A DNA stretch of 63,954 nt, filler included, from Thraustochytrium aureum (lineage: Eukaryota), in NCBI GenBank assembly GCA_012862495.1. It is 7 parts of 6 records of this genome, joined end to end, with 100 filler letters (N's around TTAATTAATTAA, not from the genome) between each part and the next. Parts side by side here need not be neighbours in the genome. Positions count along the whole stretch, not along the records: positions 19,339 to 48,809 come from BLSG01000087.1; 6 more parts are not named here. The stretch is one strand, 5' to 3'. A model generated the notes under the pieces. It was not told the DNA's origin, did no database searches, and was given only the letters and a program-made list of their open reading frames with translations. Of the stretch, positions 19,224 to 62,871 are shown in pieces (the stretch's first letter is position 1; the number at the start of each line of letters is the position of its first letter). Both the position numbers and the translations under genes were made by a program.

Positions 19224-19282
19224 TTTGCTGGCGCAGACNNNNNNNNNNNNNNNNNNNNNNNNNNNNNNNNNNNNNNNNNNNN

Positions 19283-19294
19283 TTAATTAATTAA
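19283..19294. other. Artificial contig spacer (TTAATTAATTAA, stops in six frames, flanked by Ns)
   Basis: The identical N-flanked 12-mer recurs at 48854, 55173, 59164, 60518 and 62872. Confidence 0.97.
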
Positions 19295-19338
19295 NNNNNN
19301 NNNNNNNNNNNNNNNNNNNNNNNNNNNNNNNNNNNNNN

Positions 19339-27340: not shown

Positions 27341-28540
27341 ATGGCGCCAGTGCGAGCCGGCGTTCGAGCCGCCCTGAACAGCACACTGTCCACGCGGTGC
27401 TTCGGGATCGAGTACGCCGGGTTTATGAGCAACCATCTCGCGCACGGAGTCGTCGCTCTCGAGGTCTTGAGCAGCGAGAGCCCCAAGACGACCGAGCACG
27501 TCGCCGACAAGTGGGTCGGCCAGTACATCCAGGACACGCTCGAACCTGCAGACAGCGCGCAGCGCGCAGAAGGCGCGCTCGCCCCGATCGGCGAGGGCGA
27601 GGCAGCTGACCTGCTTGGCAAGCGCGAGCGGTTCTATGGCCTTGTAGATTATTACGGCCGCCAAGTTGAACTCACGGGCCTGCAGGCTACGGTCCAAGAG
27701 CACCTCCCGAAACTCTGCGGCGGCGTCGCCGGGTCGGCCTTTCACGGGGCCATACAACTAGGATACGGCGTGTTCGCTGGCGCTGACCGTGTCGCGGTGG
27801 AAGGTCTCGCGTACTTGCACCACTCGCACCTCGCCTTTGCGACCGATGAGGTGCTCGAGGCGGCGGAGGGGCGCGCCCAAGCTTCCGGTTTCGCAGAATT
27901 CAGGAGCTCGTTCCGGTCTGCCCTAGTGGCCGTCGCTAGTGACACAGAGCTCCGCGAGCGGGCGGCCAGCGGGGAGGCGAGCTTTGCGCAGCTAGCGACT
28001 TCCCCGTTCCAGCGGCGCATGCTGGCGCTGGCGCAGAGCCCTTCCCAGCTCGACCGACCATGCAGCTCGGTCTTGCTCGCGCCGCTTGGCTGGTTCGTGG
28101 ACGCAATGCTCGAGGTTTTCCTCGAGACCAGCGACGCAGCAACCTGGGACTTTTTCCTCTTGCACGGTGTGACGTCCGCTTGGGCGCTCGAGCAGGCAAG
28201 TGCGACCCTGAACGAGACGGCGCGGGCCAGGGTCAGCGCAGGCCTGGCCCATGCTGTCGCGGCGACCTACGTCGCGCAGGGCTGTCCCGAGCTGCGGGCC
28301 GCAACGGGCACGGAGGACGAGGTGAGCCTTGCTAGCGAGTCTTGGGAGGCGATATGCAGCCGCGTCGCCAACTCTAGCTCCGACGAGCACGTGTTCAAGC
28401 TCGCCCAGGTCGCCATGCTGCGCAGCCGAGCTGCGGATTCCGCCCTCGAGGATCGGACCTTCAAGCTCGCTGCGGCACGCGCGCTACATGGCAGCATGCG
28501 GTTTGGTCCGCCGCAGCAGCGAGTCAAGCCGGGCGCATAA
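27341..28540 (+). CDS. Questin oxidase-like (DUF4243) family oxidoreductase
   Basis: Conserved His motifs FMSNHLAHG, SAFHGAIQLGYG, DFFLLHGVTSAWAL and DEHVFKL. Confidence 0.75.
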   Translation: MAPVRAGVRAALNSTLSTRCFGIEYAGFMSNHLAHGVVALEVLSSESPKTTEHVADKWVGQYIQDTLEPADSAQRAEGALAPIGEGEAADLLGKRERFYGLVDYYGRQVELTGLQATVQEHLPKLCGGVAGSAFHGAIQLGYGVFAGADRVAVEGLAYLHHSHLAFATDEVLEAAEGRAQASGFAEFRSSFRSALVAVASDTELRERAASGEASFAQLATSPFQRRMLALAQSPSQLDRPCSSVLLAPLGWFVDAMLEVFLETSDAATWDFFLLHGVTSAWALEQASATLNETARARVSAGLAHAVAATYVAQGCPELRAATGTEDEVSLASESWEAICSRVANSSSDEHVFKLAQVAMLRSRAADSALEDRTFKLAAARALHGSMRFGPPQQRVKPGA

Positions 28541-28783: not shown

Positions 28784-30193
28784 CTATGATGCGTTCTTTT
28801 TACGACGCACTGCCGCAACGACACCTTCCACGAGATCCGGTTCGGCATCAAAGAATATTTGGCCGTCCAGCGCGAGGAGCTCAGGTAGCAATTTTGCCTC
28901 ATCCGCGCTTAGCCCTGGTTTTCCAAGGCGTTCTTCAACCTCAGACGCAGACGCCAGAAAGTGGACGATGACGGTGCCTTCAGTCTTTGCCTCACGTTCC
29001 AAGGCTACGCGGGCCTCGTTAATGCAATACTTCGAGTCAAAAAAGTCGACCAGGTTGACGATAATCAGGATGACGTGCGCTTCTTCGAGTGCGCGCTTCA
29101 TCTCTTTCGTAGGGTTGCCGGACACCGGAAGGTTTTTGGCGTCCAAGAACGGCTCAAGGCCTTTATTTTGGAGTATTTCCCGGAAACTGTTTGCGTCGAA
29201 CTTGTTGGAGCCGCGATGCACGATGAACACGTCGTAGTGGCGATTAACAGGAGCAGGACGGGGTGAAACCATGCCGCTCGTGGAATCTCCGCCGTCGTCG
29301 CTTGCACCAGTGGACCCTAGCCCACGTCCGGCTCTCTTCTTCTTACGCACCACATAAACGATTGGGCAAACGAAAACAGCGAGGACAAAGACACTACCGA
29401 CGACAATTCCAGCAATGGCACCAGGACCAATCGACGCTGCGGAGGCGTCGCTCTCGTCCCCGCGCAGTCCTGACGTCTCCGTCGGCGTGCTTGATGGCGC
29501 CCCAGTCGCTTGGTCTGCCGTAGGAGCGGTGCTGGGCGTTTCGGACAAGGCGGCGGTTGGCGAAGTGCTTGGCGAGGATGTTGGGGAGACGCTGGGCCGA
29601 GCGCTCGGTGAATTGGTCGGTTGCCGCGTCGGGCCACTCGTTGGGGCTTTGGTCGGGCCACGAGTCGGGGACTTGGACGGCCCGCGAGTCGGGCCTCTCG
29701 TTGGGGCTTCGGACGGCTCGGGCGTGGGCCGCGGGACCTGAATCGGCCCGCAATCCGTGCAGTCCGTGCCAAGTTTGAGCGGCTGCTGGGTGGGGTATCC
29801 GCTGCTATCGTCACATAGCTGTCCTGCGCCTGGAGGATCTGGGCACCCCAGGGCTCCGCTGTCTTCAACTCGCGTTAAGCCGTGCTCCGAGTATGTATCA
29901 AAGCACAGCTCAACAGTGGCTTCCGTTGCGCTCGGGCAAGTCCCGCACGTCACGGGACACTGGCGCCTAACGCGCACCCCGAAGTTGGAGTTCTCACCGC
30001 AGTATTGCGCGAGCTCCAAGCAGCTGTTGCCACCGCCTTCCCAATCCGGGCAATCGCTGCCAATATGGACAGTCGGCCTGCCGTTGTCACGAATGTGGTC
30101 TTCCCAACCGGGGCACCACTGCCCGACAGCATTCTGCTGCGCGAGCATCAGCGCCATTATCAGCAACAGCAGTTTCGTTCTCATCATCTTCAT
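28784..30193 (-). CDS. Receptor 1: signal peptide - ShK-like + Cys-rich ectodomain (type A) - PST stalk - TM - canonical TIR
   Basis: MKMMRTKLLLLIMALMLAQQNAVG signal; CLELAQYC...RRQCPVTCGTC; GTDCTDCG; PT/PS repeats; TM AIAGIVVGSVFVLAVFVCPIVYVV followed by RKKKR; TIR YDVFIVHRG...PFLD...VILII...FFDSKYCINE. Confidence 0.85.
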   Translation of the reverse strand: MKMMRTKLLLLIMALMLAQQNAVGQWCPGWEDHIRDNGRPTVHIGSDCPDWEGGGNSCLELAQYCGENSNFGVRVRRQCPVTCGTCPSATEATVELCFDTYSEHGLTRVEDSGALGCPDPPGAGQLCDDSSGYPTQQPLKLGTDCTDCGPIQVPRPTPEPSEAPTRGPTRGPSKSPTRGPTKAPTSGPTRQPTNSPSARPSVSPTSSPSTSPTAALSETPSTAPTADQATGAPSSTPTETSGLRGDESDASAASIGPGAIAGIVVGSVFVLAVFVCPIVYVVRKKKRAGRGLGSTGASDDGGDSTSGMVSPRPAPVNRHYDVFIVHRGSNKFDANSFREILQNKGLEPFLDAKNLPVSGNPTKEMKRALEEAHVILIIVNLVDFFDSKYCINEARVALEREAKTEGTVIVHFLASASEVEERLGKPGLSADEAKLLPELLALDGQIFFDAEPDLVEGVVAAVRRKKNAS

Positions 30194-30729
30194 CGCTGAG
30201 GTCCACCGCCCCGCCCCTGTCTTGGCCCGCGCCAGCTGATCAGGGTTTGCGTCGTCGGCAAGCTGCACTGGCNNNNNNNNNNNNNNNNNNNNNNNNNNNN
30301 NNNNNNNNNNNNNNNNNNNNNNNNNNNNNNNNNNNNNNNNNNNNNNNNNNNNNNNNNNNNNNNNNNNNNNNNNNNNNNNNNNNNNNNNNNNNNNNNNNNN
30401 NNNNNNNNNNNNNNNNNNNNNNNNNNNNNNNNNNNNNNNNNNNNNNNNNNNNNNNNNNNNNNNNNNNNNNNNNNNNNNNNNNNNNNNNNNNNNNNNNNNN
30501 NNNNNNNNNNNNNNNNNNNNNNNNNNNNNNNNNNNNNNNNNNNNNNNNNNNNNNNNNNNNNNNNNNNNNNNNNNNNNNNNNNNNNNNNNNNNNNNNNNNN
30601 NNNNNNNNNNNNNNNNNNNNNNNNNNNNNNNNNNNNNNNNNNNNNNNNNNNNNNNNNNNNNNNNNNNNNNNNNNNNNNNNNNNNNNNNNNNNNNNNNNNN
30701 NNNNNNNNNNNNNNNNNNNNNNNNNNNNN

Positions 30730-32890
30730 GTTTGAAACGCGCTTTGACGCCTCCTATCCCTGCTCCGACTCCCCCAAAACAAAAGACAGCGACGTCACCG
30801 GCAGCAACACTACCAAAGCCAAATGCTGAGGCACCTCCCACGCCGGCAGCGCCAAGGAGTGCTGGAGCGGCGAATCCAATCAAAGCACCAACAAGGATCC
30901 CTCCCGTCAAACGTGGGAACCTGCTCTGCCAGGCGCCTGGCGGCGTGATTGGGATTTTCCCTCGGCCAACGCCGTCGTCGCTATTGACCTTTGAAAGCCA
31001 CGTTTTGAAGGACTCGGTCTCGGCGAGAGCTTTGTGCTCGAGCGCCCACAGTTTCTCGAGCTCTTGCGGGAGGCTGGTGTCGACGGTGGAGGCCAAGCTC
31101 TTGGCTTGGACGCGCCAGGCACCTACCTCGCAGAGGACATGGAGCACCTTCCGTGGAAACTCGCGCTTGGCCGCATCCCCGCTGAAGAGCTTTCGAATTG
31201 TGTCCTTTATCCAACTCTTGAGCTCACTTTCTTGCGCCTTGCCACTCTCGGCTCTGACGTTGCTCAGCACCTCGTCAGCTTCGTCAAACCAAACCGGGAC
31301 CCCTGGGCGCTCAACGTTCGACCTCCACTCGGAGCCCTCCGCAGATACCCGCCAAGCTTTCACGCTTCTCAGGTCTTCAACTTTGTGCTCCTCCTGAGCG
31401 CGTTTCCATACGCACTCCAGAGACTTGCTCGGTGGGGTGAGCGCTGCGAGCGCAACGCTGGCGATGAGTTTGTTCAACATGCGCAACGCCGCGTCGCAGT
31501 TTGCGTCTGATGATTCAGCAGACGTAAAGGTGTTGTCCGGACCCCAATAGCCCCTCTTCGCGGCCAGGTCCTGGATTTCAGCGTCAAGGTCGCTGATGAC
31601 GCTCTCCCAAGCTCTAGCGACTTGGTTCGAGTACTTGCCGCCTTCTGATAGCTCCACGAGTTGGAAAAGCTCCTCCGACTCCGCGCGAAGTGCCTGGAGG
31701 CCCGCAAGCAGGGTGACCTCGCTTGGGCTTTCAACGCGAATGCTCCGCCAACGGTCGTCTGGCGTTTTTGGAAGGGAACCGTCGAGGAGGCCACGAAAGG
31801 TTGTCATTAGGACCGCAAACCGTGCCCGAGCCATACCAAAAACGAGCTCTTTCCAGAAGTCCTTGACACCTGCCAGCTCAGCAGTCTTTGCCGCAATGTC
31901 CTTGTGAGCCGCATTGGCTCTAGCTCGCTCAGCATTTCCGTCATCCCGGAAACCTAAAAATGACCATGGCCCAGGTACGCGCAGTCCCCACGTACCCTCA
32001 GACGGCTGTCTGTTGCCAGTGTAGTCCCTGAGGACGGTGAGCTGGTTGAGGAAGTGTGTCTGCTCGCCGCCCTCGAGGTCTGGGAGGAGAGAGTAGAACT
32101 TACGAATCAGCTCGCAGTTGGCGAGGTCGCAACCCCTGCATTGGCTGTTCAGGGCGTCCACTCCGCGAGTGAAGTAGAGCGACACCTTTCTCGATTCGAA
32201 GTGTTTGGAGAGGTACTCCTTGTTGTAGATTGTCTTTGCGTTGCTACTGACTTTCTCGCGCTCCCTCTGCTCCACTGCATCCATCTTGTTGATGAACACA
32301 GCGACAGACGCCCGCGTGCCAGAGCGGCGCACAAGCTCCGCCAATTCCTCGAACTTTGTTGAACCGACGTCGGTCGTCGGAATCACCATGGCGATCAACG
32401 TGGCCTTCTTCAGTTCTTCGCAAATGACGCCTTCTCGATGCTCGCGGCCATTCGCCTCGTCTGCGCCTGGAAGGTCCACAATCTCGACACCGCCAAGACG
32501 GAGGTCCAGGTAATCCTTCATTGGTTTCATGTTGGCTTCAATTACAAGCCGCGGGATCGTCGTCCTCCTGTTTTGATGTTCAATCCAGCTTCGTGGGCCG
32601 GCAGCAGGATCGACCTGCGTTCCTTGGGTTTCGCTTGGCCCTTGGCTTTCGATTGGCCAAACACGAAGCGTCGGCTCGCCTTCGACATGGCCCCTGAAAT
32701 GTCCAGCCTCCATACTTTCCACGTGCCGCACTAGTGTTACGGTGGCGGTTTCGATCATTGCGGCGCTTGGCAACAGGTACGCTCCGATAATCGCGTTGAG
32801 GATCGTACTCTTGCCGGCGTTCTGTGTGCCCAACGCAGCGATGCGGAGCACGGAGGCGTCCGCGTCGTTGTTGAAATCCAGTCCAACCAT
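30730..32890 (-). CDS. Dynamin-like GTPase of bacterial DLP/mitofusin type with C-terminal Gly-rich hydrophobic segment; 3' end in gap
   Basis: G1 IAALGTQNAGKSTILNAIIG, LLPS..ETAT (G2), IVDLPG (G3) and INKMD (G4), then a helical region and GGILVGALIGFAAPALLGAAGVGG. Confidence 0.8.
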
Positions 32891-33934
32891 CCTCGGTAGT
32901 GCCTGCGCGCCCCCGTGCTGAGACTCAGCAAAGCCTGGCCTGTACTAGTAGGTATCTGCTTCGCGATTTGCGTGCAGCAAGCCTCGCTCGCGATGCGGGA
33001 CTGCCGACCGCGCTGGGATGGCATCCTGGTTAAACTAGNNNNNNNNNNNNNNNNNNNNNNNNNNNNNNNNNNNNNNNNNNNNNNNNNNNNNNNNNNNNNN
33101 NNNNNNNNNNNNNNNNNNNNNNNNNNNNNNNNNNNNNNNNNNNNNNNNNNNNNNNNNNNNNNNNNNNNNNNNNNNNNNNNNNNNNNNNNNNNNNNNNNNN
33201 NNNNNNNNNNNNNNNNNNNNNNNNNNNNNNNNNNNNNNNNNNNNNNNNNNNNNNNNNNNNNNNNNNNNNNNNNNNNNNNNNNNNNNNNNNNNNNNNNNNN
33301 NNNNNNNNNNNNNNNNNNNNNNNNNNNNNNNNNNNNNNNNNNNNNNNNNNNNNNNNNNNNNNNNNNNNNNNNNNNNNNNNNNNNNNNNNNNNNNNNNNNN
33401 NNNNNNNNNNNNNNNNNNNNNNNNNNNNNNNNNNNNNNNNNNNNNNNNNNNNNNNNNNNNNNNNNNNNNNNNNNNNNNNNNNNNNNNNNNNNNNNNNNNN
33501 NNNNNNNNNNNNNNNNNNNNNNNNNNNNNNNNNNNNNNNNNNNNNNNNNNNNNNNNNNNNNNNNNNNNNNNNNNNNNNNNNNNNNNNNNNNNNNNNNNNN
33601 NNNNNNNNNNNNNNNNNNNNNNNNNNNNNNNNNNNNNNNNNNNNNNNNNNNNNNNNNNNNNNNNNNNNNNNNNNNNNNNNNNNNNNNNNNNNNNNNNNNN
33701 NNNNNNNNNNNNNNNNNNNNNNNNNNNNNNNNNNNNNNNNNNNNNNNNNNNNNNNNNNNNNNNNNNNNNNNNNNNNNNNNNNNNNNNNNNNNNNNNNNNN
33801 NNNNNNNNNNNNNNNNNNNNNNNNNNNNNNNNNNNNNNNNNNNNNNNNNNNNNNNNNNNNNNNNNNNNNNNNNNNNNNNNNNNNNNNNNNNNNNNNNNNN
33901 NNNNNNNNNNNNNNNNNNNNNNNNNNNNNNNNNN

Positions 33935-35450
33935 CCTCGTACGGCATTACATCGCCAACCCGAACGCGGTGATCCTTGTGGTGATCCCGATAACCGACGA
34001 CCTGCAGACGTCGGAGGCGATCCAGCTGGCGCGCGAGTACGACAGGCCGGGCGTGCGCACCCTTGGCGTCCTGACCAAGCCAGACCACGTTTTGGCAGAC
34101 TCGTCGCGCAAGGAGTTCATGGCGAGGGCACTAAAATCGGGCGGGGGCCCGGACACTCCACTCAAGCTCGGATACATCGCTGTTCGCACGCGCAAAGGAG
34201 ACGAGCACGGCCCGCTCTCGCAAGTCCTCGAGGCTGAGCGCACGCTTTTCAGCTCGGACCCTGTCTTCGGCCAGCTGGACAGGTCGCTATGGGGCATTGA
34301 GACGCTGCGATCGCGCGTACTCTCGATCCAATCCAGGTTTCTCCGCGCGTTTCAAAAGGGCTTTGCGTCCTCGGTCCAGGCTCGAAAGGGTGAGCTGGAG
34401 GCAGAGCTTGCTGAGCTAGGAGGTTTGGAGCCCGGGGAGGAGCACGACGTACTACTTGGGTTTTTCCGACGCCTGAACGCCGTCTTTGACAGGGTTACGA
34501 TCAGAAGGGAGAGTGGGAACATGCCGAACGCGGCGCTTCTTGGGATGCACTTCGACGAGGCTGCCTTGGAGTTTGGGCGGAACATCACCGAACGGATTTG
34601 CCCCACGCCAGGGTTTTTCAAGAACGACGAGGCGACGCTTGCAGACGTGCGGGCTCTGATCCAAGACCTTGGCTCCAGTGGCGAGTTGGACAGCCTCGGG
34701 GTGTTCAACAATGTCGTCCGGAGGCACATCGCGGAGCCCGCCAAGCAAGTCGTGGAAGAGTTTGTGAGGCAGGCGAACTTCTTTGTGCAACAAGCGCTAG
34801 GTGCGATTCTCGGAATGGACGACCTCCGCGCGCTGGCCCGCAAGTGCCCGAAGATCTGCTCCAACCTGCTCGAGTCAATCAGGGCCAAGGAAGCCGAGCT
34901 CTGCCAGAGCACGCTCGCGTTTGTGAACGACCTCATCGAGGCTCAAGCAGATTACGCGCGGTTTGGGAGAGACTTGCCCTTGGGTAGCGGCACTGAGATC
35001 GTCGGGCTCATCCAAGGCCTTGGGCTGGATCAGGAGACCCAACTCGTCAGCGCTGTCAGCGCTGTTTGCGGCCAGCCTGGAGCAGTCGTCTTTCGTGCGT
35101 TCATGAACCGCGTTGGGCGCGCTTCACCCGCGAGTTCCCCCATGGGAGACCGCGGGGCCGCGTGGATTTGCCACAAGCTTCAGTGCCGGGCAGAACGTGC
35201 GGTCGCCGCATTCGAAGAAATTATCCCTCGTATAGTCTGGCGCAAGCTCGTCAAAGGGTACGAGGCCGTCTTCGAAGGCCTCCAATCAGATCTCGCCAAA
35301 GACTCTGATCTGCGCAAGCTTTGGACCGAAGAAAGTGGCACTGTTGTCGAGGAACGCAGAGCTCTTGAGGATCGCATTAGTAGGCTGGGTCGTAGCTTGG
35401 AAAAGCTGGAGCAAGTCGAGTTGCGCAGCGCAATGCTCAGCTTGGTTTGA
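33935..35450 (+). CDS. Mx-like dynamin-family GTPase (N-terminal part lost in N gap)
   Basis: ILVVIP...TSEAIQLAREYD...RTLGVLTKPD (G4 with Mx-type TKPD), LKLGYIAVRTR, WGIETLRSR, helical middle domain and GED-like end (EERRALEDRISRL). No PH or proline-rich domain is visible. Confidence 0.8.
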
Positions 35451-35619
35451 GAAAAAAAAGGCTCTTGCCAATGGCGATAAAACTGATTCGTTCGGTCGAC
35501 TCGATGTGGTCGATGCCCTTCCACAGCTCGTTGGTGGGCTACGCTACGTGAGGCGGAAGGCTCGACCTGAACGAGCCGAACGAAGCAGCACTGTCGAACC
35601 TTCTGAAGGCAGCCCAAGC

Positions 35620-36244
35620 CGGCAGTCTAGCTGCGCTACTAAGGCTGCTCGCTGAGAGGACCAGCCCCATGGGGACTGGAACGCTGACTGTGAGGCCACT
35701 CATGGGCGCCTCGATGCCAAATAAGAAATGAAAACTTACCCCGGCCTCAATTAGATCGCCAAGGTTTCTCGCCAAGAACGTCGCCGCCTCCCAACCTGTC
35801 ACATTCTTAGTCAGCCAGTTTGCCGACTCAGTCAACTCCAGCTCACGTAGTCCCTCGCTGGTGGCGCTGAAGGGGGCGAGAAACACAGCCAACGCTCTCG
35901 GCGGAGCGATCGCGCAGTTCTTCCATAGCATTGCGAAACCCGTGGTCCGTAAGCTCCCTTGCCGAAGACAAGAAGACGACAACGCGTTTTGGCCTTTTTG
36001 GAGCGCAACGACTCAAACGCCGAGCCAGCGACCTCAAGCTCGCGCAACCATGTGGTTTTGATGCCCCGCTTGTCAAGCCCTTTGCTGACTTTGTTAACCA
36101 GGCGGGCGTGCTGCTGCGTTGCAAGAAAGACACCCGGCAAACCTCATTGTGCGGGTCTCACAGGCACGTCTGCTCGGCGTTGCAGGTCGCCTCGCTCTGC
36201 AGCTGGGCGCTCGCGCAAAACGCCCTTGCCCCGGCCTCGTCCAT
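35620..36244 (-). pseudogene. Receptor remnant 2: start of type B ectodomain joined directly to a frameshifted VTGWEA TIR-like domain
   Basis: From ATG 36244 reads MDEAGARAFCASAQLQSEATCNAEQTCL*DP (TGA where paralogs have TGG). It continues across frames as FLATQQHARLV, VVVFLSSARELTDHGFRNAMEELR and ANWLTKNVTGWEA. Stalk and TM are absent. The 3' boundary is approximate. Confidence 0.7.
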
Positions 36245-37506
36245 TCTTGCCAGCAAGGCACTTTCCTGGAGGCACCGGCAGCAGGCCTGCCGCGACACCA
36301 AGCAAGACTCGGCTCCGCGTCCTCGCCAGGATCTGCTGGATGCTGGCTGGGGCAGTTCCGTTTGCTGCGCGAGGGTCGATACGTACAGGTTCGCGCCTCA
36401 CGTCCAGCCTCGCGGCTCTTGGAGATGGATCCCTGACCAATTCAATGATCTTGAAAGCTCAGGCTGGTCTTCGAGTGGCGCACGAGCTCGAGCCGCGCCT
36501 TGGCATCCGACTCGGAGTACTTTCGCACCAATGACCAATGCACGTTTGCTCGCACGGCTCTCGGCTCGGCCTTCGGAGTCGGGCGGGCGTGGAGCCGGCT
36601 GTCGCGACAACTCGGCGAGTCCTCCTTGCAGCCCAGCCAACCTGAGCGGGCCATGAGCGCAGGAAGGTCAGCAGCATTTGCGACGAGCGCAGGGTGTGCG
36701 GCCAATTCTTGCGCCGGCGTGAGCATGCGCGTCAAGTCTCCGGTCGAGGCCACGAGGAGGAGGCGGCCCAGTTCATTTCTCGCGTGGAGCCAGAATTCAG
36801 AGGGAAGAGCACCTCCTCGAGTACCCACCGACCGACCTACCGACCTTTGCGTTCAAGTTTGCGTTTGGATCGCTGCGAACGCGTTTCCGTGGAGCACGAG
36901 ATCTCATCGGAGCATCTCTTCAACGCGGAGTGCAACGCCACACGCAGCGCGTCGAGTGGCGCCTCTCGGACCATCATGAGAGCAGTTGCGTTTCGGTTTT
37001 AGCCACTGCTGCTCTGCTGGTCGCTTGCACAACCAAGACTGGTCGGACTGGTGCCACAGCGGTGCCGGCGCTGATCGAGGACGGGCATGGGCTGACCAGT
37101 TCAATGCGCCCCTAGTGAGAGCACGAGTCCCGAATCGAACGCTTCGTGCTGCGCTCGACGAAGGCCGAGAGCTGCTTTTTTTGCACCACGAAAAGGTTGC
37201 GCTCTTGTGCTCTGGCCGTCTTTGTCACCGTTCTCGCGTACGACGGCGTGCAAGGCAATGCCTACTCTACAGTGAGCGGGAATCGGTAACGGCCTTCGTA
37301 GCCGACACACTGATCTGCTTGCTTGCCTTCGAGCCGCTCAAAAGCGCTCTGTGGCGTTTGCTGAAACAATGGATAACCTGGACGAGTTCGCACAGGACGC
37401 CGAGGCGGGCTCCGAGGGCTGCACCGACCGCGGCTGCGGTCAAGCCCGGTACGGGGTCCTTCTCGTAAACGGGCCGTTTCGCCAAGCCAGCAATGATCCG
37501 ATCCAT

Positions 37507-38992
37507 TTACGCCTCATTCGCCCGCTTGTAGACATGATGGATGTGCGGGAACCTCCCAGTTGCAAAGTACGATTCCACGCCGGCCAGGACCAAGCGGTCC
37601 AGGTTGTATACCTTGAAGGGCTCTGCCTCCCAGCCCGTCACGTCCTGGAAAAGCCAGCTCGCCGCGTCGCTGTTCTCGGACTGTTTCAAGTCCTCCTTGA
37701 GCGCGTGCAGCGAGCTCAGAAAAACCGGCAAGACCTTCAACGGCACCACTTGGAAGCTGTCCGCATGGCGGTCGCGCAGCTCGCATAGCGCGGAGCGCAG
37801 CGCTGGGTCATCGACAAGCTCTTGCGAAGAGGAGAGCAACACCACCACAACGCATGCCTTATCGATGCACGACGGTCGGACGGCGCGGCTGGCTTGGTTT
37901 GCGGCGGGAGGCTCGATCACGCAATCGATGCCATTTGCAAGCAAGCCGTCCCGAACCGCTCGAGCCGGGCGAAAGTGATGTTTGTGGCACAGAATGACGA
38001 CCGGGCCGGTTGGCGCGATGGAGAGCTGTCCCAGTGGGCCGTCAAAGTCGCTCTTTGTTTGCCTTGCGCGACGACGACGCGAAAACCAGGCCACAAAACT
38101 TGCCACAAGCAAAAGCAAGCCCACTCCAGTCCCCACTCCAGCGTATACTCCCGCGTCGACTTGCTCCTGGGTGTCTTTTCCTGCAGCCGCAGGTTCGAGG
38201 GCGGATGGGCCCGAGGTTGCAGGCGCGCCGAGCGGTGCTGAAGTTGGACTAGTCTCACTGGCAGAGCTGTTGGTCGGCGCTGGGCTGGGCGGGTAAATGG
38301 GCTTGCGGCTGGGCGCTTGGCNNNNNNNNNNNNNNNNNNNNNNNNNNNNNNNNNNNNNNNNNNNNNNNNNNNNNNNNNNNNNNNNNNNNNNNNNNNNNNN
38401 NNNNNNNNNNNNNNNNNNNNNNNNNNNNNNNNNNNNNNNNNNNNNNNNNNNNNNNNNNNNNNNNNNNNNNNNNNNNNNNNNNNNNNNNNNNNNNNNNNNN
38501 NNNNNNNNNNNNNNNNNNNNNNNNNNNNNNNNNNNNNNNNNNNNNNNNNNNNNNNNNNNNNNNNNNNNNNNNNNNNNNNNNNNNNNNNNNNNNNNNNNNN
38601 NNNNNNNNNNNNNNNNNNNNNNNNNNNNNNNNNNNNNNNNNNNNNNNNNNNNNNNNNNNNNNNNNNNNNNNNNNNNNNNNNNNNNNNNNNNNNNNNNNNN
38701 NNNNNNNNNNNNNNNNNNNNNNNNNNNNNNNNNNNNNNNNNNNNNNNNNNNNNNNNNNNNNNNNNNNNNNNNNNNNNNNNNNNNNNNNNNNNNNNNNNNN
38801 NNNNNNNNNNNNNNNNNNNNNNNNNNNNNNNNNNNNNNNNNNNNNNNNNNNNNNNNNNNNNNNNNNNNNNNNNNNNNNNNNNNNNNNNNNNNNNNNNNNN
38901 NNNNNNNNNNNNNNNNNNNNNNNNNNNNNNNNNNNNNNNNNNNNNNNNNNNNNNNNNNNNNNNNNNNNNNNNNNNNNNNNNNNNNNNNNCAT
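37507..38992 (-). CDS. Receptor 3: (ectodomain in N gap) - PST stalk - TM - VTGWEA TIR-like domain
   Basis: Stalk at 38200-38320; TM VGLLLLVASFVAWF followed by SRRRR; PVVILCH...VVVVLLSS...ALCELR...VLPVFL...WLFQDVTGWEA. The putative ATG is at the gap edge (38992). Confidence 0.7.
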
Positions 38993-39811
38993 GCTGATGG
39001 CTTTGGACCAGAATGGCGACGGGTCGTCGGGCGCGCAAGCGCGATGCAGAGTTCTGTTGCGAGCTTAACGCAACTGAAGCGCTTTCGCGCAGCTCTGCGC
39101 GCGACAGGAAACCAACGAAAACAAAACGCAACAACTGGGGATTAGCAGGTGACCGTTCTTGGCTCTGACGGCCCCGCGAGGGACCGGCGCAACGGTCAGA
39201 GCTATGCTCACCTCCGCAGCGCGGCTTGTCGGCATGCTGCACAGCTCGGGGCTAGGCTGGCCCCTGACTTGGAGCCTGAGTGGGGATTTGCTCGAAGGCT
39301 TGCTTGGGTGGTCGTTGTGGTAGTTGAGAGAAGCGAGCAGTACCTATGTGCCCTTCGCATGACCATGGGACTGGGGAAAGGGGCTGGCCCTGCATGCCTT
39401 GACGGTGTCGGATTTGTCGCACTCCGGATTCAGTCAGGCAAAGCGGATCCGTGCGCCCTCTGGCTACTGCGCACGTGACCGCAACACGGCAAGCTGGCGT
39501 GGAAAGGCGCTGCTCGCTGTTCATGTGCGGGCGCTGAAGCGAAACAGTTCCGATACCTTGCATCCGCTTGCTGGGCGGTCCCACAGACAGGTCTTTTCTG
39601 CGTTGCATTCCATCAGTCCTGAATGCGCCACAGAACGCTGTCGCGCCATGCACGTCCCTCTTCGTTCGCTGCATTGCCACCTGGCGTCAACGCCACTGAC
39701 ATGCCCAACAGCGCTCTCTGTCTGCTAGTCACCTTCGCTGCACATCGCAGTATTGCGATTCGTGCGTTGGACTTCCTTGTATTCAATTGGAGAGGACTTT
39801 CTTTTCTTCCG

Positions 39812-41275
39812 TCATTTGCGTTTGTACACATCCTTCAAGGGCGGAATGCGCTCTGTGGATAAGAATTGTTCCACTCCAATGTAGATGAGCTGGTCTAGGC
39901 CATCCGTCACGTACTGCGCTGCCTCCCATCCCGTCACGTTATTCCAAAGCCAATCCACGGACTCGGCATGCGACGACAAAGTAGACCGGTAGTCGCTCTT
40001 CAAGCCTACAAGCGGCGTCATGTATACCACGAGTACAGTAACACACGAATCACGCTCTCCTTCCGCATGCAGATCTCGTAGCTCGCGGATGGCATCTTGT
40101 AGCTTTGGAGAACTGTCATACTCTCTCGCGGAGGGAAAAATGACGACCGCAAATTCGGCTTCCTGTAAGCGATGCGCAGTCATCTGGTCGTCTGAAGCAG
40201 TCTCGGGATCGACAGGACGCACGGAATCCAAAGGGGCCACAATCTCGCAGGTAAACCGCTTGCCTTTGTCCTGCAAGAAGCGGTCTTGGAGCGCCTTGGC
40301 CAGGGCGCTTTTTCCCCGATGGCAAATAACGACGACTCGCAGGGCATGCTTCGGGCTGGGCAGCCAGCATGCTGCACGAGCAAGNNNNNNNNNNNNNNNN
40401 NNNNNNNNNNNNNNNNNNNNNNNNNNNNNNNNNNNNNNNNNNNNNNNNNNNNNNNNNNNNNNNNNNNNNNNNNNNNNNNNNNNNNNNNNNNNNNNNNNNN
40501 NNNNNNNNNNNNNNNNNNNNNNNNNNNNNNNNNNNNNNNNNNNNNNNNNNNNNNNNNNNNNNNNNNNNNNNNNNNNNNNNNNNNNNNNNNNNNNNNNNNN
40601 NNNNNNNNNNNNNNNNNNNNNNNNNNNNNNNTTGTTGGACGCTGGAATTGGCGATCTTGTCGGCGGTGGGCTCGGAGTTCGGCTTGGGGCAGGACTCGGG
40701 CCTGCGCTAGGGGACTTGCTTGGGCCTGCGCTAGGGGACTTGCTTGGGCCTGGGCTAGGCGATTTGCTCGGGCCTGGGCTAGGTGACTTGCTCGGCCGGC
40801 CTGACGGAGTCTCCGTTGGGGACTTGGTCGGCGGCGTCGGTCGCGGTACGGAGAGTGCAGGGGATCCGCAGTCAGTGCAGTCTGTCCCCAGAGAGCAAGA
40901 GCTTGAACTCGAACCCAGCCTGCCATCATCGCAGAATGGCAAGACGGACGCACATCCAAACGCACCGCCATCCTCGACACGAAAGCAACTATCAAAGCAC
41001 AGGTCAGCAGTAGGGTTTGTCGAGCTCGGGCATGTGCCACACGTGACAGGGCACTGCCGCCGAACGCGTTCGCCCCTGTTGGTTTGCTCACCGCAGTACC
41101 CAGCCAGCCCTGCACACGACACGCGAAAGGCCACAGCGCACGGCACGGCTGGGTCTACGAACGGATTAGGGCTATCCCCAACGTGACCCTCCCATCCGGG
41201 GCACCACTGCGCGGCCGCCGCTAAGCAGGCATGCGCGGCGATCACCGCGGCCAGGCCGGCCTTCCGCTGCCACAT
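39812..41275 (-). CDS. Receptor 4: signal - ShK-like type A ectodomain - stalk - (TM in gap) - VTGWEA TIR-like domain
   Basis: MWQRKAGLAAVIAAHACLAAAA|QWCPGWE; RRQCPVTCGTC; GTDCTDCG; PSKSPS repeats; RVVVICHRG...AVVIFPS...AIRELR...VLVVY...WLWNNVTGWEA. Confidence 0.8.
   Translation of the reverse strand: MWQRKAGLAAVIAAHACLAAAAQWCPGWEGHVGDSPNPFVDPAVPCAVAFRVSCAGLAGYCGEQTNRGERVRRQCPVTCGTCPSSTNPTADLCFDSCFRVEDGGAFGCASVLPFCDDGRLGSSSSSCSLGTDCTDCGSPALSVPRPTPPTKSPTETPSGRPSKSPSPGPSKSPSPGPSKSPSAGPSKSPSAGPSPAPSRTPSPPPTRSPIPASNXXXXXXXXXXXXXXXXXXXXXXXXXXXXXXXXXXXXXXXXXXXXXXXXXXXXXXXXXXXXXXXXXXXXXXXXXXXXXXXXXXXLARAACWLPSPKHALRVVVICHRGKSALAKALQDRFLQDKGKRFTCEIVAPLDSVRPVDPETASDDQMTAHRLQEAEFAVVIFPSAREYDSSPKLQDAIRELRDLHAEGERDSCVTVLVVYMTPLVGLKSDYRSTLSSHAESVDWLWNNVTGWEAAQYVTDGLDQLIYIGVEQFLSTERIPPLKDVYKRK
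40690..40795 (-). repeat. Coding 24-bp tandem repeat (PSKSPS[P/A]G x4) in receptor stalk
   Basis: Repeated gggcctg(c/g)gctagg(g/c/t)ga(c/t)ttgct units. Confidence 0.8.
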
Positions 41276-41924
41276 CCCGATAGTGCTCTGCGTTGCATCA
41301 ACATACAGCGAGCTGGCAAGTGGCGAAGAGTATTGACCGAGCGCGTTGCGCTCTCATGGCCGCACCGCTCTGGATGCCGGGCAGGTCCCGGCAGAGGCGC
41401 AGCAGCAAAACAGCTGCCGAGTTAGCCAGCGGCACGCACGCCAGTATGCGTCGAGGCGGCAAGGCGCCTTGCTCTTCTTTTTTCCCGTTTCTCGCTCTTG
41501 ACCGTGGAGTGCACGGCTCGGGGTTTTGTTTCGTTTCGGGCTTGCCAAGTGCACGATACTCAGCCCTCGCATCGAATCCGAGCTCAAGAGTCGTCGCCTT
41601 GGTGAATTGATGCCCGACTGGCGCGAAACACGGACGGCGCGCTATCGATGGCGGCCGGTTCGGTCGAGGTGTGACCGAGGTTGACCCTGGCTTGAGAGAG
41701 TCCATCCAGTGCCACCACTGACTTCATCCATCATCCCTTCATACTACGCTCTTGGCAGAGGTGACCGACATTGTCAACGTGGTTGATGCACTCCTCGATC
41801 TCTCCGGCAGGCCGAGCGAGCACAGGCGGCTCCAGCAGCTCCAGGACGCTTGAGCGCGCTCGTGTTGCGCAGACCCGAGACGGATTCGGTACTCGCGGAC
41901 CAGCCGCAGCGCGCCGGCAGGTAG

Positions 41925-43463
41925 ATGGCGCTGCGACGGGGCAAGCGGGGGGTGGTGGCAGCTGCGGCGGTGGCCACGCTGCGCTCTGGCTTGGCAGCCG
42001 CGCTGTGGTGCCCCGGATGGGAAGGCTATATTGAAGACGCGCCGTTCGCTACGACAATTGTCATCGATAGGCCTTGTCCAGCATGGCATTACGAATGGCA
42101 GGGGGAACTCGTGACTGCTGCAACGTGCTCAGAGCTCGTTAGTTACTGCAGCGAGCAGACCCCCCTCGGGGAGCGCGTTCGGCGTCAGTGCCCCGTTTCG
42201 TGTGGGTCCTGCCCGAGTGCGACGAGCTCGGTCGCCGACCTTTGCTTTGACACTTGCACAACTCGCGTTGAGGACGACGGCGCAGTGGGCTGCTCCGATG
42301 TCGCGCCGGTAGGGCTATGCGACGATGGTAGGGCGGGCTCGATTTCCACGGCCTGCCCTCGAGGGACCGACTGCTCCGACTGTGGGGTTGCTCTCTCCGT
42401 ACCGCGGCCGACGCCGCCGACCAGCTTTCCCACAGCGCATCCCTCAACCAAAGCACCGACGAAAAGCCCGTCACGTCGGCCGACCAAGTCGCCCTCGAGC
42501 GGCCCGTCACGTCACCCTTCCAAGGCCCCGACAGCAGGCCCGACGCGTCAGCCGAGCAGGTCGCCGAGCAACTCGCCTAGTGCTCACCCGAGCGTTTCAA
42601 CAGGCGGAACTTCCAGCGGAGCTCCAACTCGGGCGCCGAGCGCCGCACCGAGCGCAGCCCCGAGCGCTGCCCCGAGCGCTGCCCCGAGCGCCGCGCTCGC
42701 GTCGGGACAAGCAAGCAGGGATCCAACATCGGCGCCGACGCTTGGCCCGACGGCTTTGCGAATCAGCGAAGACGACCCCTCGGAAAGTCTCGGCGCTGGT
42801 GCGATTGTTGGGATCCTCCTTGGGCTTGCTTTGCTCGCTGCCATCTTTGCTTTTGTGCGGCGGAAGAGATATCCTTCAATTATCGCGGGCGAGAAATCGC
42901 AGCAGACTTCCTATGATGTGTTCATCGTGCACCGCGGTGATAACAAGTTCGACGCCAATATAGTCCGAGAAAAGCTGGAAATGCTCGAACGCCTCAGGCC
43001 ATTCTTGGACGCCAAGAGCCTGAAAGTCGGTGGCGACCCCACAGCGGAAATGCAACGCACCCTTAGCGAAGCACCGGTCATTTTGATCCTGATCAGCCTG
43101 ATCAGCTTTTTCGACTCCAAGTATTGCGTCCAGGAAGCCCGGACAGCCCTGGAACGTGAAGCAGAGGTCAAAGGCACAGTCATCGTTTACTTCTTGGGAA
43201 GTCAGGAAGAAGTCGAGGAGCACCTCAGAAAACCAGACCTCAGCAAGGACGAGCGAGAGTTGCTTCCCAAGCTCTTTGCACTCGATTCACAGAGGCTCTT
43301 CGAGGGTGGCGACGATTCCTATAGCTCTCTTTTGAAGCTCGTCGCTGATGCGGTGAAGCGCAATAAGAAGCAAAGGGCTGTCCCGAGCGAAATGCCCTTG
43401 GCCGCGACGGGCGCCGCGAGCGAACAAGGTCAATCTAGCCCGGTAGCGAGCTCTACAACCTGA
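41925..43463 (+). CDS. Receptor 5: signal - ShK-like type A ectodomain - stalk - TM - canonical TIR (complete, uninterrupted 512-aa ORF)
   Basis: LWCPGWE; RRQCPVSCGSC; GTDCSDCG; PSAA repeats; TM AIVGILLGLALLAAIFAFV followed by RRKR; TIR YDVFIVHRG...PFLD...FFDSKYCVQE. Confidence 0.9.
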   Translation: MALRRGKRGVVAAAAVATLRSGLAAALWCPGWEGYIEDAPFATTIVIDRPCPAWHYEWQGELVTAATCSELVSYCSEQTPLGERVRRQCPVSCGSCPSATSSVADLCFDTCTTRVEDDGAVGCSDVAPVGLCDDGRAGSISTACPRGTDCSDCGVALSVPRPTPPTSFPTAHPSTKAPTKSPSRRPTKSPSSGPSRHPSKAPTAGPTRQPSRSPSNSPSAHPSVSTGGTSSGAPTRAPSAAPSAAPSAAPSAAPSAALASGQASRDPTSAPTLGPTALRISEDDPSESLGAGAIVGILLGLALLAAIFAFVRRKRYPSIIAGEKSQQTSYDVFIVHRGDNKFDANIVREKLEMLERLRPFLDAKSLKVGGDPTAEMQRTLSEAPVILILISLISFFDSKYCVQEARTALEREAEVKGTVIVYFLGSQEEVEEHLRKPDLSKDERELLPKLFALDSQRLFEGGDDSYSSLLKLVADAVKRNKKQRAVPSEMPLAATGAASEQGQSSPVASSTT

Positions 43464-44961: not shown

Positions 44962-46353
44962 ATGGATAAGGCCGAGGCCGAAGCGTTCTGCGGCGAGTTT
45001 CTGGGGCAGACCAGCTGCAATGCGGAGCAGACGTGCTTGTGGAATCCCATGGCCGGGAGCTGCATGGTCGCCTTGACGTTCAACTTTTGCCAAGCGATGA
45101 ACGGGGACCCGGTCGACTGCGGCTTTTGGTCGCAATGCGAGTTCAAGACGGTGAACGGCATTCCAAACACTTGCACCGCCGCGCAGCGGCCGGCGGGATG
45201 GAATTGCGAGCAACCTGATTACAACCAAAATCGTTGCCACTGCGGATGCGGGATCTGGGACCCGGATTGCGACAAGTCTCCCCCGGACGACGCGAACGAT
45301 GCGAAAGCCACGTGCGGGCCGTGGGCTTCCCAAATTCCAGAGATCGGCAAGTACTGCGACTACTCGTCAAACACCTGCGCGACTCTGAGCCCAACCGCGT
45401 TACCGACCAGAACGCCAACGAGCCACCCGAAGCAGGGCACCGAGCAAAGCCCCGAGCAAAGCTCCAACACGAACACCGACCGAGGCGCCGAGCACTCGGC
45501 CCAGCGCAACCCCGAGCGCAACCCCGAGCGCATCGCCAAGTGCTATGGTAGCAACCCAAGCACCGAGCCACGCGCCGAGCTTGTCCCCACATCGGCAGCC
45601 GACGGGCAGTGTAACGGGCGGCAGCCCAACGACCCGGGCGCCGTCCGGTTTGCTTCCGACCAGTTCGCCAACGCCCTTCCTTGCTGCTGCAGCCCTCGCT
45701 GACGAAGGCGAGAGTGTCGCAGTCATTGTCGGGGCGACTGCGGCCGGTATTCTTTGCTTGCTTGGCGTTCTCGTCTTTTGGCTGTGCCGCAGGAGATCGT
45801 CAGGGCCAGCTTCCGGCCCTCGGGGGCCGGTCGTCATCCTTTGCCACAGGCAGCACGGCAACATAGCTCGAAATATCCTTGCGGGTCTGTGCGACAAGGG
45901 CTTCGAGTGCGCGATTGAGCCTCCGCTGAAGCCCGAGGATGCCGTCGCCGGCCAGCCTTCCAGCCTGGAGAAAGCCCAGCTCGTTGTCGTTCTCCTCGCA
46001 TCCGTGAAAGAGCTAGACGATGATCCCGCGCTCGCCAACGCCCTTCGCGCGTTGCGCGGTCGTCACGCGGAGGCCAGAGGCCAGGGTCTCGTTGTCTTTC
46101 CAGTGCATTTGAGCTCGCTCGGCGCGATCAAGACCGGCTCTGGAGAGTCTGCATGTTTGGACGTTCTGAACTGGCTTACCCACGAGGTGACCGGGTGGGA
46201 GGCAGAGCCGTACAAGGCAGGCAGCCTGGACCTCCTCGTCATCCATGGCGTGGAATCTTACTTTGCAACAAGCACGATCCCCCAATCAACGCGGCCTTCC
46301 ACCACGTGGAGCCCCCACGCCTCGAGAGCAATCCGCCGAGCGCAAGGCAATGA
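44962..46353 (+). CDS. Receptor 6: type B Cys-rich ectodomain - stalk - TM - VTGWEA TIR-like domain; frameshifts near 45430 and 46283
   Basis: CNAEQTCLWNP, RPAGWNC, CHCGCGIWDPDC; stalk; TM VAVIVGATAAGILCLLGVLVFWL followed by CRRR; PVVILCH...WLTHEVTGWEA. The start and signal peptide are uncertain. Confidence 0.75.
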
Positions 46354-46783
46354 TCATGATGATGGATGATGCGGCTGATGATGAACGGGAAAAGGACGAT
46401 GATTCATTGATGAACGAAAAAGCACTCGGCAAGTCCGCAAACAAGGTGTGTACCCCTCTGCTCACAAATAGGCCCAGGCCTGCCTTGCACACTCTGCCTA
46501 CCAGCCAGCCAGCCAGCCCCACGAAAAACGTGGTGAGAGTAAGCGAACAAGTGCGAGTGGGTACAGGGCGTCAAGTTGAACCGGATGGCGCACCGGCAGG
46601 AGACCGGCAGAGCTGCTGCCCGATCACAAGCTGCGGCCGAGCAGCGAGCAGCTTGATCACTCAACAGCAGACCTGAAACGAAATCAGGAGCGGAAGGCCG
46701 CGAGAGCCCGACGGCGACAGGGCGCTTCATGCACCAACCACGACGCACGAAGCTTTACGAGAACGGACTAGCGTTGCTTGGGG

Positions 46784-48138
46784 ATGGGCTTCGGGTACGA
46801 CGACGCCGTGCTGCTCTGCTCGCCGCTCCAAAGCCAAAGCACTTGTAATGCGGAGGATAGCTGCCTCTGGGATCCGGGCGATGGCACATGTAGAGCGTCC
46901 GACTGGGTGAGGTTTTGCTCCTACGCGAACACGGTGGCCGACCCTGAAACGGAATGCAAGAAAAGCTTTCACTGCCAGTACACGCGAGTCGGTGGCCAAG
47001 ATGGCGTCTGTACCACAGCGCCGCGGCCTGCTGGCTGGGTCTGCGAGGCGCCGGCTTTCTTCAATGGTGGATGCGACTGCGGGTGCGGGGTGCGTGACCC
47101 TGACTGTTTTACTGGCGGGAGTCCATGTATTCATGCGGTCCGTGGGACCGCAATGTCGACGTCGAACTCGTTTGCGACTACGAGACGAACTCATGCGTGT
47201 CGAAAGCTCCAACCCCCGGTCCGTCTAGATCTCCGACCCGCGGACCGTCGTCAAGGCCGACCTCGGTGCCCAGCGCCTCGCCAACAACTACGCCGACGAG
47301 CGCGCCTAGCCACACTCCGAGCAAGACGCCAAGTGAGGCCCCCGCTGGGTCGACGCTGAGCCCGTCTAGTTTGTCGACGATCATGCCCAGCTCGGCGCCG
47401 AGCTTGGAACGCACTTTGGCGCCGAGCTTGGAACCCACTTTGGCGCCGAGTTTGGCTCCTTCTGCTCAGCCCAAGGTCTTTACTGGAGCCCAGGCAGGGG
47501 GGGAGCCAGCGCAGCTGAGTAGCGTTGGACTGGCGGCTTTGGGAGGGCTCGTCGCTTTGTTCGTCGTGGGGGCGCTTGTTGTACTCGGATGGTGGCGCAA
47601 GCGCAAAGGCCCCGTTCCCGTGGCGCACCCCTTGTATTTGATAGAGCCAACAGAGCCAGTCGCGATCCTGGCCACGGCCCAGCATGCGAGACTGGCTCGC
47701 GCAATACAGGGCTCCTTGAGTCAGCGGAGCGTGACGAGTCAGATTGAGCCTTCGAGAGAGAGAGGCGGCGTATCCGCCATCGAGCGCGCACAGCTTGCGC
47801 TGGTACTGTTTTCGTCTGCGCGCGAGCTAGAGGATGAGGGTTTCCGCGCGATGATGCAAGAGCTGCGAGCCCGGGCCGACGATGAGACCTTGCGCATTTT
47901 CCCAGTCTATCTCACTGCGTTCGAGCCGCTCGAAACTGCCGTTCGCGCTTCGGAGCACGCGGAAGCAGCGTCCTGGTTGTTTCGCGGCGTTACTGGGTGG
48001 GAGGCAGATCTCTTCGCGACGCCCAGCCTCAGCGACATGGTGGCCAAAGCCGTGGAGACGTTTTTTGCGTGCGGAGTGATTCCCGACATCAAAGATACCT
48101 ACGTGCTTTTCCACCGGGTTGAAGAAGATCCAGTCTAG
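46784..48138 (+). CDS. Receptor 7: type B Cys-rich ectodomain - stalk - TM - VTGWEA TIR-like domain; frameshift near 47120
   Basis: CNAEDSCLWDP, RPAGWVC, CDCGCGVRDPDC; APSLEPTL repeats; TM LAALGGLVALFVVGALVVLGWW followed by RKRK; PVAILAT...MMQELR...IFPVYL...WLFRGVTGWEA. Confidence 0.78.
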
Positions 48139-48684
48139 TAGAGCTCCAGGGCACCCCCGAGTACTCCGTACCTCGCAGTACAGATCACAGGCTCCCACTC
48201 TCGACGATGTAGCTGTTGACGATCATGATGGGGCCCATGGTCATCATCATCACCGGTGCCTCGTTCTCGCACTGGCAGGCAAACGATTTTGACACTTGAC
48301 TTTCGTTCGCTGTTCGCCGATTCCGCGACCGCCTTGAATGACGACGGCCGGCAGCCGTCGGTCGTGCCAATCGACGGACGCCGTCCGACTCGAACCATCG
48401 TGCCGAAGCGCACCTGAACTCGATTTCGGATCCGCGAGGCTTGGTTCAAGAGTCATGGACAAAGGCACACTCCTGCGCAACTCCAGCGTGCTTTTTTTAN
48501 CCCGCGCCGATGCAAGTACTTGCACCACCATCATGGTACTAGTAGAGTACTCGCATGTTGGCAGCCCGGGCAGAGCACGAACAGCAGCACGAACAGCAGC
48601 ACGAACAGCAGCTCGCGTTTACGAGCCGCGGTTGTGGCGGCACTGAACGGAACATCGCTTTGGGACTTGGCGCTGTTGGCAAGA

Positions 48685-48809
48685 ATGGACGAGGCCGGGG
48701 CAACGGGCGTTTTGCGCGAGCGCCCAGCTGCAGAGCGAGGCCACCTGCAACGCCGAGCAAACGTGCCTCTGGGACCCCGCATGATGAGGTTTGCCGGCTG
48801 TCGGCATGG
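48685..48809 (+). CDS. Receptor 8: 5' fragment of a type B ectodomain gene, cut off by the scaffold end
   Basis: Near-identical (inverted) to 36130-36255. Reads MDEAGAT-AFCASAQLQSEATCNAEQTCLWDP-HDEVCR after removing two homopolymer insertions. Confidence 0.6.
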
Positions 48810-48853
48810 NNNNNNNNNNNNNNNNNNNNNNNNNNNNNNNNNNNNNNNNNNNN

Positions 48854-48865
48854 TTAATTAATTAA
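48854..48865. other. Artificial contig spacer
   Basis: N-flanked TTAATTAATTAA. Confidence 0.97.
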
Positions 48866-48909
48866 NNNNNNNNNNNNNNNNNNNNNNNNNNNNNNNNNNN
48901 NNNNNNNNN

Positions 48910-55172: not shown

Positions 55173-55184
55173 TTAATTAATTAA
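55173..55184. other. Artificial contig spacer
   Basis: N-flanked TTAATTAATTAA. Confidence 0.97.
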
Positions 55185-55228
55185 NNNNNNNNNNNNNNNN
55201 NNNNNNNNNNNNNNNNNNNNNNNNNNNN

Positions 55229-58967: not shown

Positions 58968-59163
58968 CGCGGCCCACTGCAGCAACAACAACGAAACCAA
59001 CCGACGACTCCGAGGGCCGCAACCGAGAGAAGAAACCGATACAGCCCACGCGACGCAAGCCAAACCCAACGCGCAAAAGCCTCCCGCGGGCTCCTCCTGC
59101 TGCTGCTGCTGCTGCTGCTNNNNNNNNNNNNNNNNNNNNNNNNNNNNNNNNNNNNNNNNNNNN

Positions 59164-62827: not shown

Positions 62828-62871
62828 NNNNNNNNNNNNNNNNNNNNNNNNNNNNNNNNNNNNNNNNNNNN

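Follow-up and report, generated by a model that had tools for sequence, protein, structure and literature searches.

A 63,954-nucleotide stretch of Thraustochytrium aureum DNA (assembly GCA_012862495.1), hereafter the window, contains two genes, R1 and R5, that likely encode cell-surface receptors, as judged from their sequences. Both proteins show, in this order, a signal peptide, a ShK-like module, a second cysteine module (CDDG/GTDC), a stalk rich in Pro, Ser, and Thr, one transmembrane (TM) helix, and a TIR domain. This layout is a real and apparently undescribed architecture. The sequences are evenly balanced for and against receptors in which the TIRs would make an adenosine diphosphate ribose (ADPR)-type signal from nicotinamide adenine dinucleotide (NAD+) upon clustering by a ligand. 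R1 and R5 are members of a family that has expanded locally and has recombined two ectodomains with two TIR classes.

Layout of R1 and R5

The coordinates, strands, and motifs given for both genes in an initial annotation are borne out, with RRQCPV[T/S]CG[T/S]C, LCDD...GTDCxDCG, and FFDSKYCxxE present in both (Table 1). Signal peptides were judged from sequence (a hydrophobic leader) and TM helices from Kyte–Doolittle hydropathy, which gives exactly one strong window in each protein (2.75 in R1 and 2.88 in R5). Ser, Thr, and Pro make up 54%–55% of the stalks, where a PT repeat scores above the Pfam cut-off in both R1 and R5. The Pfam family TIR_2 is matched with 40.2 bits in R1 and 35.4 bits in R5 (cut-off 28). 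Pfam scans of the two proteins give no leucine-rich repeat (LRR) family and no immunoglobulin (Ig) domain, in agreement with the proposed type-I layout free of both.

The TIR domains of R1 and R5

The TIRs of R1 and R5 (class 1) are 61% identical. Against PDB sequences, the R1 TIR has eight matches at E ≤ 1, every one a plant TIR or a bacterial TIR protein (Roq1, SNC1, AT1G72930, SpbK, and others). With an R1+R5 profile, the top five of 18 matches are plant or bacterial; MAL, SIGIRR, and TRIF appear only at E 0.17–1.7, and no Toll-like receptor (TLR) chain is among the 18. Both searches rank the plant and bacterial enzyme TIRs above the animal adaptor TIRs. On helix αC, residues Glu393 (R1) and Glu404 (R5) fall on the Glu of the SxWCxxE motif of Roq1. 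The catalytic Glu described as intact is indeed present and aligned, but by itself it predicts little about activity.

A TIR search of 1.84 billion representatives yields 96 matches with a best E of 1.8e-16; there is thus no close relative among the representatives searched. Leaving aside P0023, a low-complexity match, the Glu is present in 94 of 95 relatives, the βB Asp in 84, and the BB-loop Gly in 90, while the residue four before the Glu is aromatic in 81 (W in 44 and Y in 37). R1 and R5 keep the Glu, the βB Asp, and the aromatic (a Tyr in both); at the BB-loop Gly column, R5 has Gly and R1 has Ser then Gly. The FFDSKYCxxE motif, the βB Asp, and the aromatic are retained between these paralogs, which are 39% diverged. 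On the 39 relatives (of 96) scanned, Pfam recognizes nucleotide-binding leucine-rich-repeat receptor (NLR)-like, multi-TIR, kinase, WD40, Roc, and similar proteins. Ectodomain A, as we call that of R1 and R5, is matched by none of the 96, and a hydrophobic segment precedes the TIR in 3 of the 95. A word-based search with the R5 TIR region gives no match (0 of 509).

Enzymes or scaffolds

In the mechanism considered here, a ligand outside the cell would bind the ShK-like and CDDG head of R1 or R5 and cluster the receptors; the TIRs would then self-associate, switching on catalysis, and would cleave NAD+ into an ADPR-type signal, possibly in defence. The NADase activity of TIRs requires self-association, with an active site that spans two TIRs (bioRxiv 10.1101/2022.05.07.491051; here and below, sources are represented by those portions of their text that were available), so that a receptor clustered from outside would supply the self-association needed. 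In the same source, the residue four before the Glu is aromatic in 12 of 12 TIRs with cyclic products (Tyr in two). It could go either way whether the TIRs of R1 and R5 catalyze Glu-dependent NAD+ cleavage. Most active TIRs gave cyclic ADPR (cADPR) without NAD+ depletion (bioRxiv 10.64898/2026.04.20.719644) and, if R1 and R5 are active, a messenger would therefore be likelier than NAD+ depletion.

Several points weigh against such catalysis. In the latter source, the active Glu-bearing TIRs number 4 of 29 in protists (with a cADPR isomer in E. coli as readout) and 12 of 61 in animals, and TLR2, IL-1R9, and IL-1R10 have the Glu yet are inactive. Because isolated TIRs were assayed there in E. 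coli, with three isomers as readout, the active count is probably too low. By analogy with the TIRs assayed there, the catalytic Glu is needed for activity but would not be enough. R1 and R5 further deviate from their relatives: both have Val at the βA Ser/Cys/Asn position (Val in 2 of 95 relatives), Val at the βD Pro position (Pro in 83 of 95), and a one-residue insertion before αC, to which R1 adds the Ser at the BB-loop Gly column. The conservation of the Glu among the relatives is partly circular, because the query itself has it. The ratios of nonsynonymous to synonymous substitution rates (dN/dS), about 0.20 for the R1 and R5 TIRs and 0.11–0.26 for ectodomain A, show R1 and R5 to be under purifying selection, which speaks for the mechanism above, but they are rough because dS is near saturation (about 1.5). 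P0001, a protein encoded on a different record, shares the ectodomain, stalk, and TM of R1 (E 2.7e-34), but its tail is of a third kind, without a FFDSKYCxxE-type motif and without a TIR match (hhalign probability ≤0.1, global mode only); ectodomain A thus needs no catalytic TIR. Finally, no downstream effector is present in the window.

The receptors could also be real and signal as TIR–TIR scaffolds, like most TIRs of TLRs and of interleukin-1 receptors (IL-1R), with an inherited, structural Glu. We regard this as possible and as the less probable of the two readings. The several receptor TIRs that retain the Glu without activity (same preprint), the βA and βD deviations, and the presence of the same ectodomain on the motif-less tails of R4 and P0001 are all consistent with scaffolding, for which the class-2 TIRs described below could serve as partners. 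The affinity of R1 and R5 is, however, with enzyme-type TIRs; the motif, Asp, and aromatic are conserved across the divergence of the paralogs, and no adaptor gene is seen among the 29 open reading frames (ORFs) scanned in the window.

The ectodomain modules

Six cysteines with ShK spacing, ending in CxxxCxxC, occur at residues 48/58/65/79/83/86 of R1 and 51/68/75/89/93/96 of R5. In R1, R4, R5, and P0001, PF01549 (ShKT) scores 14.7–18.4 bits, below the cut-off of 20.9 in all four. The best match of an ectodomain profile against PDB sequences is aurelin (E 0.053), which we take to have the ShK fold. A structure model of the ectodomain (predicted local distance difference test [pLDDT] 51, predicted template modeling score [pTM] 0.32) is too poor for a fold search. 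Of the ShK-like motif first annotated, the six-Cys spacing is therefore present but the Pfam cut-off is missed, and a "ShK domain" is not proven; judged from its cysteines, "ShK-like" is a fair label for the first module of ectodomain A.

The ectodomain has 12 cysteines in R1 and 14 in R4, R5, and P0001. The CDDG/GTDC module of R1 is without its second and fourth core cysteines, both together, and such a paired loss would fit the loss of one disulfide in a folded domain. Scanned with Pfam, the four receptor ectodomains give no match on this module, which may represent an extracellular domain that has no name as yet and, at a guess, could bind calcium. A metagenome scan retained 80 loci out of 208 confirmed, many of them short. 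In all 80, whose proteins are otherwise unrelated, the CDDG module is the sole match; the first 49 residues of the query are not matched by any of them. A TIR beside the module was found at none of these 80 often short loci, with narrow profiles of 2–6 sequences. On these comparisons, the second module is a common mobile module. Among the loci (L001–L080), a six-Cys CxDTC...DGxCDDG...CxxGTDCxDCG module is found widely and often in repeats (e.g., L023, L032, L047, or L072).

In a word-based homolog search with full-length R1, 21 of 7993 scored candidates match and P0001 alone shares the ectodomain; six of the 21 were inspected, and the remainder look like stalk-composition matches. The Atlas contains nothing over 0.78 for ectodomain A. 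The idea of an independent assembly from mobile modules is supported by the CDDG module in unrelated proteins and by the recombined ectodomains and TIR classes of the cluster.

A second class of TIR and exchange of ectodomains

The account given of R1 and R5 in the initial annotation holds, but it leaves out a divergent second TIR class, carried by R2, R3, R4, R6, and R7. These class-2 tails are 31%–49% identical to one another, with WL..VTGWEA invariant in their last strand. Pfam recognizes a TIR in none of the four scanned. The best fold match of the R4 TIR model (pLDDT 78) is 4c6t_B, from the entry of the RPS4/RRS1 TIR pair (VIA Z 15.2, root mean square deviation 3.1, 148 aligned), and TIR structures fill the top rows. 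The hhalign profile–profile probability between class 2 and TIR is 91%–94%, R3 matches TIR_2 clusters of the Atlas at 0.94, and, in a shuffle control, the real score is reached in 0 of 200 for R3, R4, and R7 and in 1 of 200 for R6. As judged from these profiles and from the R4 model, the class-2 tails are five-strand TIR folds invisible to Pfam. The TIR counts in such genomes are thus probably too low. Foldseek with the R4 model places RUN1 first, but flavodoxin-like proteins tie and the result was set aside. A class-2 profile finds no TIR among PDB sequences, and its homolog search gives 0 of 7996, which is weak evidence.

At the catalytic column, one profile direction places Ala, Ala, and Met in R3, R4, and R7, whereas hhalign and the reverse profile place there the Glu of "ELR" in the same three, with an insertion of some three residues ahead of it; in R6 the residue is Ala in both alignments. 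A reading of class 2 as plainly devoid of the Glu was abandoned because the alignment register is ambiguous. In neither register do any of the four class-2 TIRs aligned show an aromatic four positions ahead of the Glu or the SxW/YC motif; the BB region varies in length. A tree built by a quick method, without animal TIRs of known identity, separates R1+R5 from class 2 (support 99 and 100 for the two groups) and does not settle the relationship between the classes. The dN/dS of class 2 is relaxed (0.34–0.55). Probably, the class-2 receptors act as partners that are altered or lack catalysis, or else they are copies in decay. In P0022, residues 51–200 form a Glu-bearing TIR with ITGWE in the last strand, as in class 2, and it ranks as the top match for both TIR classes; from its sequence, it is a possible bridge between them.

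Within ectodomain A, identity is 61% between R4 and R5 and 53% between R1 and R5, whereas the TIRs of R4 and R1 are only 19% identical. An R5-like ectodomain on a class-2 TIR is best read as an ectodomain exchange, provided that the two sides of its N run belong to one R4 gene; the sequence of R4 thus points to ectodomain shuffling in the cluster. The others of class 2 (R2, R3, R6, and R7) have a different ectodomain (B), in which inspection by eye shows no hydrophobic leader.

R4 and R5 lie head-to-head, with starts 650 bp apart. This arrangement of divergent genes, with the most similar ectodomains of the cluster and TIRs from the two separate groups, invites the reading that the shared ectodomain joins R5 and R4 and that the two-subunit active site is completed, or held in check, by a class-2 TIR. 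The WL..VTGWEA kept in the last strand, the TIR active site spanning two subunits (bioRxiv 10.1101/2022.05.07.491051), and the match of R4 to the RPS4/RRS1 entry agree with it. Neighborhood and fold likeness do not, however, show binding; breaks or frameshifts affect four of the five class-2 genes in this assembly, an inverted duplication can also yield a head-to-head order, and the dN/dS of class 2 is relaxed. We consider such pairing unlikely; it is compatible with enzyme activity of R1 and R5.

Comparison with known systems

Toll-like receptors have the same signal peptide, ectodomain, single TM, and cytoplasmic TIR (PMC6040629). R1 and R5 differ by the absence of LRR, the long mucin-like stalk, and a TIR closer to those of plants and bacteria. 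A 2010 survey found LRR-TM-TIR proteins nearly confined to animals (PMC2939053). LRR-free TIR layouts are already known there (PMC5094078, PMC9334734, PMC6040629): the IL-1R-like Ig-TIR proteins (reported to have more than one origin), the molluscan epidermal growth factor (EGF)-TIR proteins, and the TIR-only plus LRR-only receptors of Hydra likewise have a TIR without an LRR ectodomain (PMC5094078, PMC9334734). Unlike these, R1 and R5 have a ShK-like and CDDG head and an enzyme-type TIR, in an apparently non-animal eukaryote; they would add one more independent origin of this ectodomain-TM-TIR design. The TIRs of TLR4 and of butterfly and brachiopod TLRs produce cADPR in a Glu-dependent way, as does an Arabidopsis membrane-spanning TIR protein produce cADPR (bioRxiv 10.64898/2026.04.20.719644), so that a catalytic TIR at the membrane or surface is no longer new in kind. 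Following the recent report there of cADPR output from TLR4, receptors of this small size, with a TIR of the enzyme type and motif-less natural partners, make a simple test case for whether membrane TIR receptors signal via their own enzyme activity. A literature search, which missed most subscription journals, found no description of a ShK-like+TM+TIR protein; it gave no match for TIR domains in labyrinthulomycetes and, for thraustochytrids, only bioRxiv 10.64898/2026.04.20.719644.

The best matches of the R1 and R5 TIRs are the plant TIR-NLR and TIR-only NADases (Roq1, RUN1, SNC1, L6) and the TIR NADases of bacteria (the AbTir/BtTir type and SpbK), with the same Glu, Asp, and aromatic positions. 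These are cytosolic, with the TIR N-terminal or free, whereas in R1 and R5 it is C-terminal on a membrane receptor, has Tyr for Trp, and is without the αA Ser-His pair found in some relatives. RRS1 and RPS4 are paired plant NLRs. R4 and R5 resemble them by their head-to-head genes with two different TIRs and by the best fold match of R4, but they would be membrane receptors with a shared ectodomain.

The gene cluster and its neighbors

The window is intron-poor eukaryotic DNA with long open frames (myosin head, 7tm_3 G-protein-coupled receptor [GPCR], kinase, HAT-repeat, and WD40 genes) and 7972 N bases in many runs. There are seven receptor-like genes, R1–R7, each with one membrane helix where complete; R2, R3, R4, R6, and R7 span 35.7–48.1 kb (Table 1).

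Table 1. Receptor-like genes, their modules, and the GTPase genes of the cluster (positions in the window)
Feature	Position	Strand	Remarks
R1, 469 aa	28784..30193	-	ATG 30193, stop 28784
R1 signal peptide	30122-30193	-	judged from sequence
R1 ShK-like module	29936-30052	-	six Cys
R1 CDDG/GTDC module	29747-29905	-	two Cys lost
R1 TM	29339-29407	-	preceded by PT stalk
R1 class-1 TIR	28796-29236	-	Glu393 codon 29015-29017
Bacterial-dynamin-like GTPase (Dynamin_N)	30730..32890	-	hydrophobic C-terminal stretch
Dynamin-family GTPase, 3' part	33936..35450	+	5' part under N run
R2, decayed copy	35716..36244	-	ectodomain-B start with stop; class-2 TIR split over frames; no stalk or TM
R3, 3' part	37507..38321	-	stalk end, TM, class-2 TIR
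R3 ectodomain-B remnant, upstream	39536-39619		followed by in-frame stops and N run
R4	39812..41275	-	R1/R5-type ectodomain, stalk, class-2 divergent TIR
R4 N run	40385-40631		at expected TM place; frame kept across
R5, 512 aa	41925..43463	+	with signal peptide
R5 ShK-like module	42075-42212	+
R5 CDDG/GTDC module	42243-42386	+
R5 PT stalk	42402-42785	+
R5 TM	42795-42860	+
R5 class-1 TIR	42912-43370	+	Glu404 codon 43134-43136
R6	44962..46369	+	ectodomain B (CxCGCGxxDPDC type), stalk, TM, class-2 TIR; one frame change near 45400
R7	46784..48138	+	ectodomain B, stalk, TM, class-2 TIR; one frame change near 47115
Extra ectodomain-B fragment	48674..48797	+	93% DNA identity to 36134-36255, inverted

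The breaks in R2, R3, R6, and R7 could be pseudogenes or assembly errors; R3 may be a pseudogene, given the upstream stops and N run. The inverted, 93% identical duplicate of the ectodomain-B start (36134-36255 and 48674-48797) shows a recent rearrangement in the cluster.

Between R1 and R2, inside the receptor cluster, two dynamin-family GTPases lie head-to-head. The one on the minus strand has BDLP as best PDB match and a weak PADLOC match to LeoA/LeoBC; its 3' end is in the N run before R1. The plus-strand gene has Mx1 among its best PDB matches and contains a TKPD motif, which we take to be linked to Mx; by its sequence it belongs to the dynamin family and is at most a candidate Mx. Mx-like genes occur in many eukaryote groups (PMC11789081). 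One may imagine a non-animal Toll-like system made from mobile parts, in which ligand-switched receptors with cADPR-type TIRs, in head-to-head pairs gated by class 2, would sit in a defence island with these GTPases, but such a combination is improbable, somewhat more so than the pairing itself.

R1 starts 79 bases beyond the N run 30273-30729, and its frame is open upstream into the ORF of the dynamin-like GTPase; the start is for this reason only inferred, from a signal-peptide-like leader that matches those of R4 and R5. A rival reading makes R1 the C-terminal end of a fusion with the dynamin-like GTPase, 1368 aa in all, instead of a receptor in its own right; in its favor, the frame is free of stops from 32890 through the 457-base N run into R1. 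This reading is very improbable: R1 has its own Met and hydrophobic leader before QWCPGWE (like R4, R5, and P0001), a frame match across the gap arises by chance one time in three, and only 26 codons are open upstream.

A Questin oxidase-like gene (27341-28540, plus strand) is convergent with R1. At 12764-16225 (plus strand), a PBP_like_2 (phosphate-binding-protein-like) ectodomain is followed by a frame change near 14790 and a 7tm_3 GPCR domain; this is probably one class-C-like GPCR with a PBP ectodomain. Paired 44-base N runs spaced by 12 bases recur in the window (e.g., 19239-19338, 48810-48909, and 55129-55228, and further at 59120-59219, 60474-60573, and 62828-62927).

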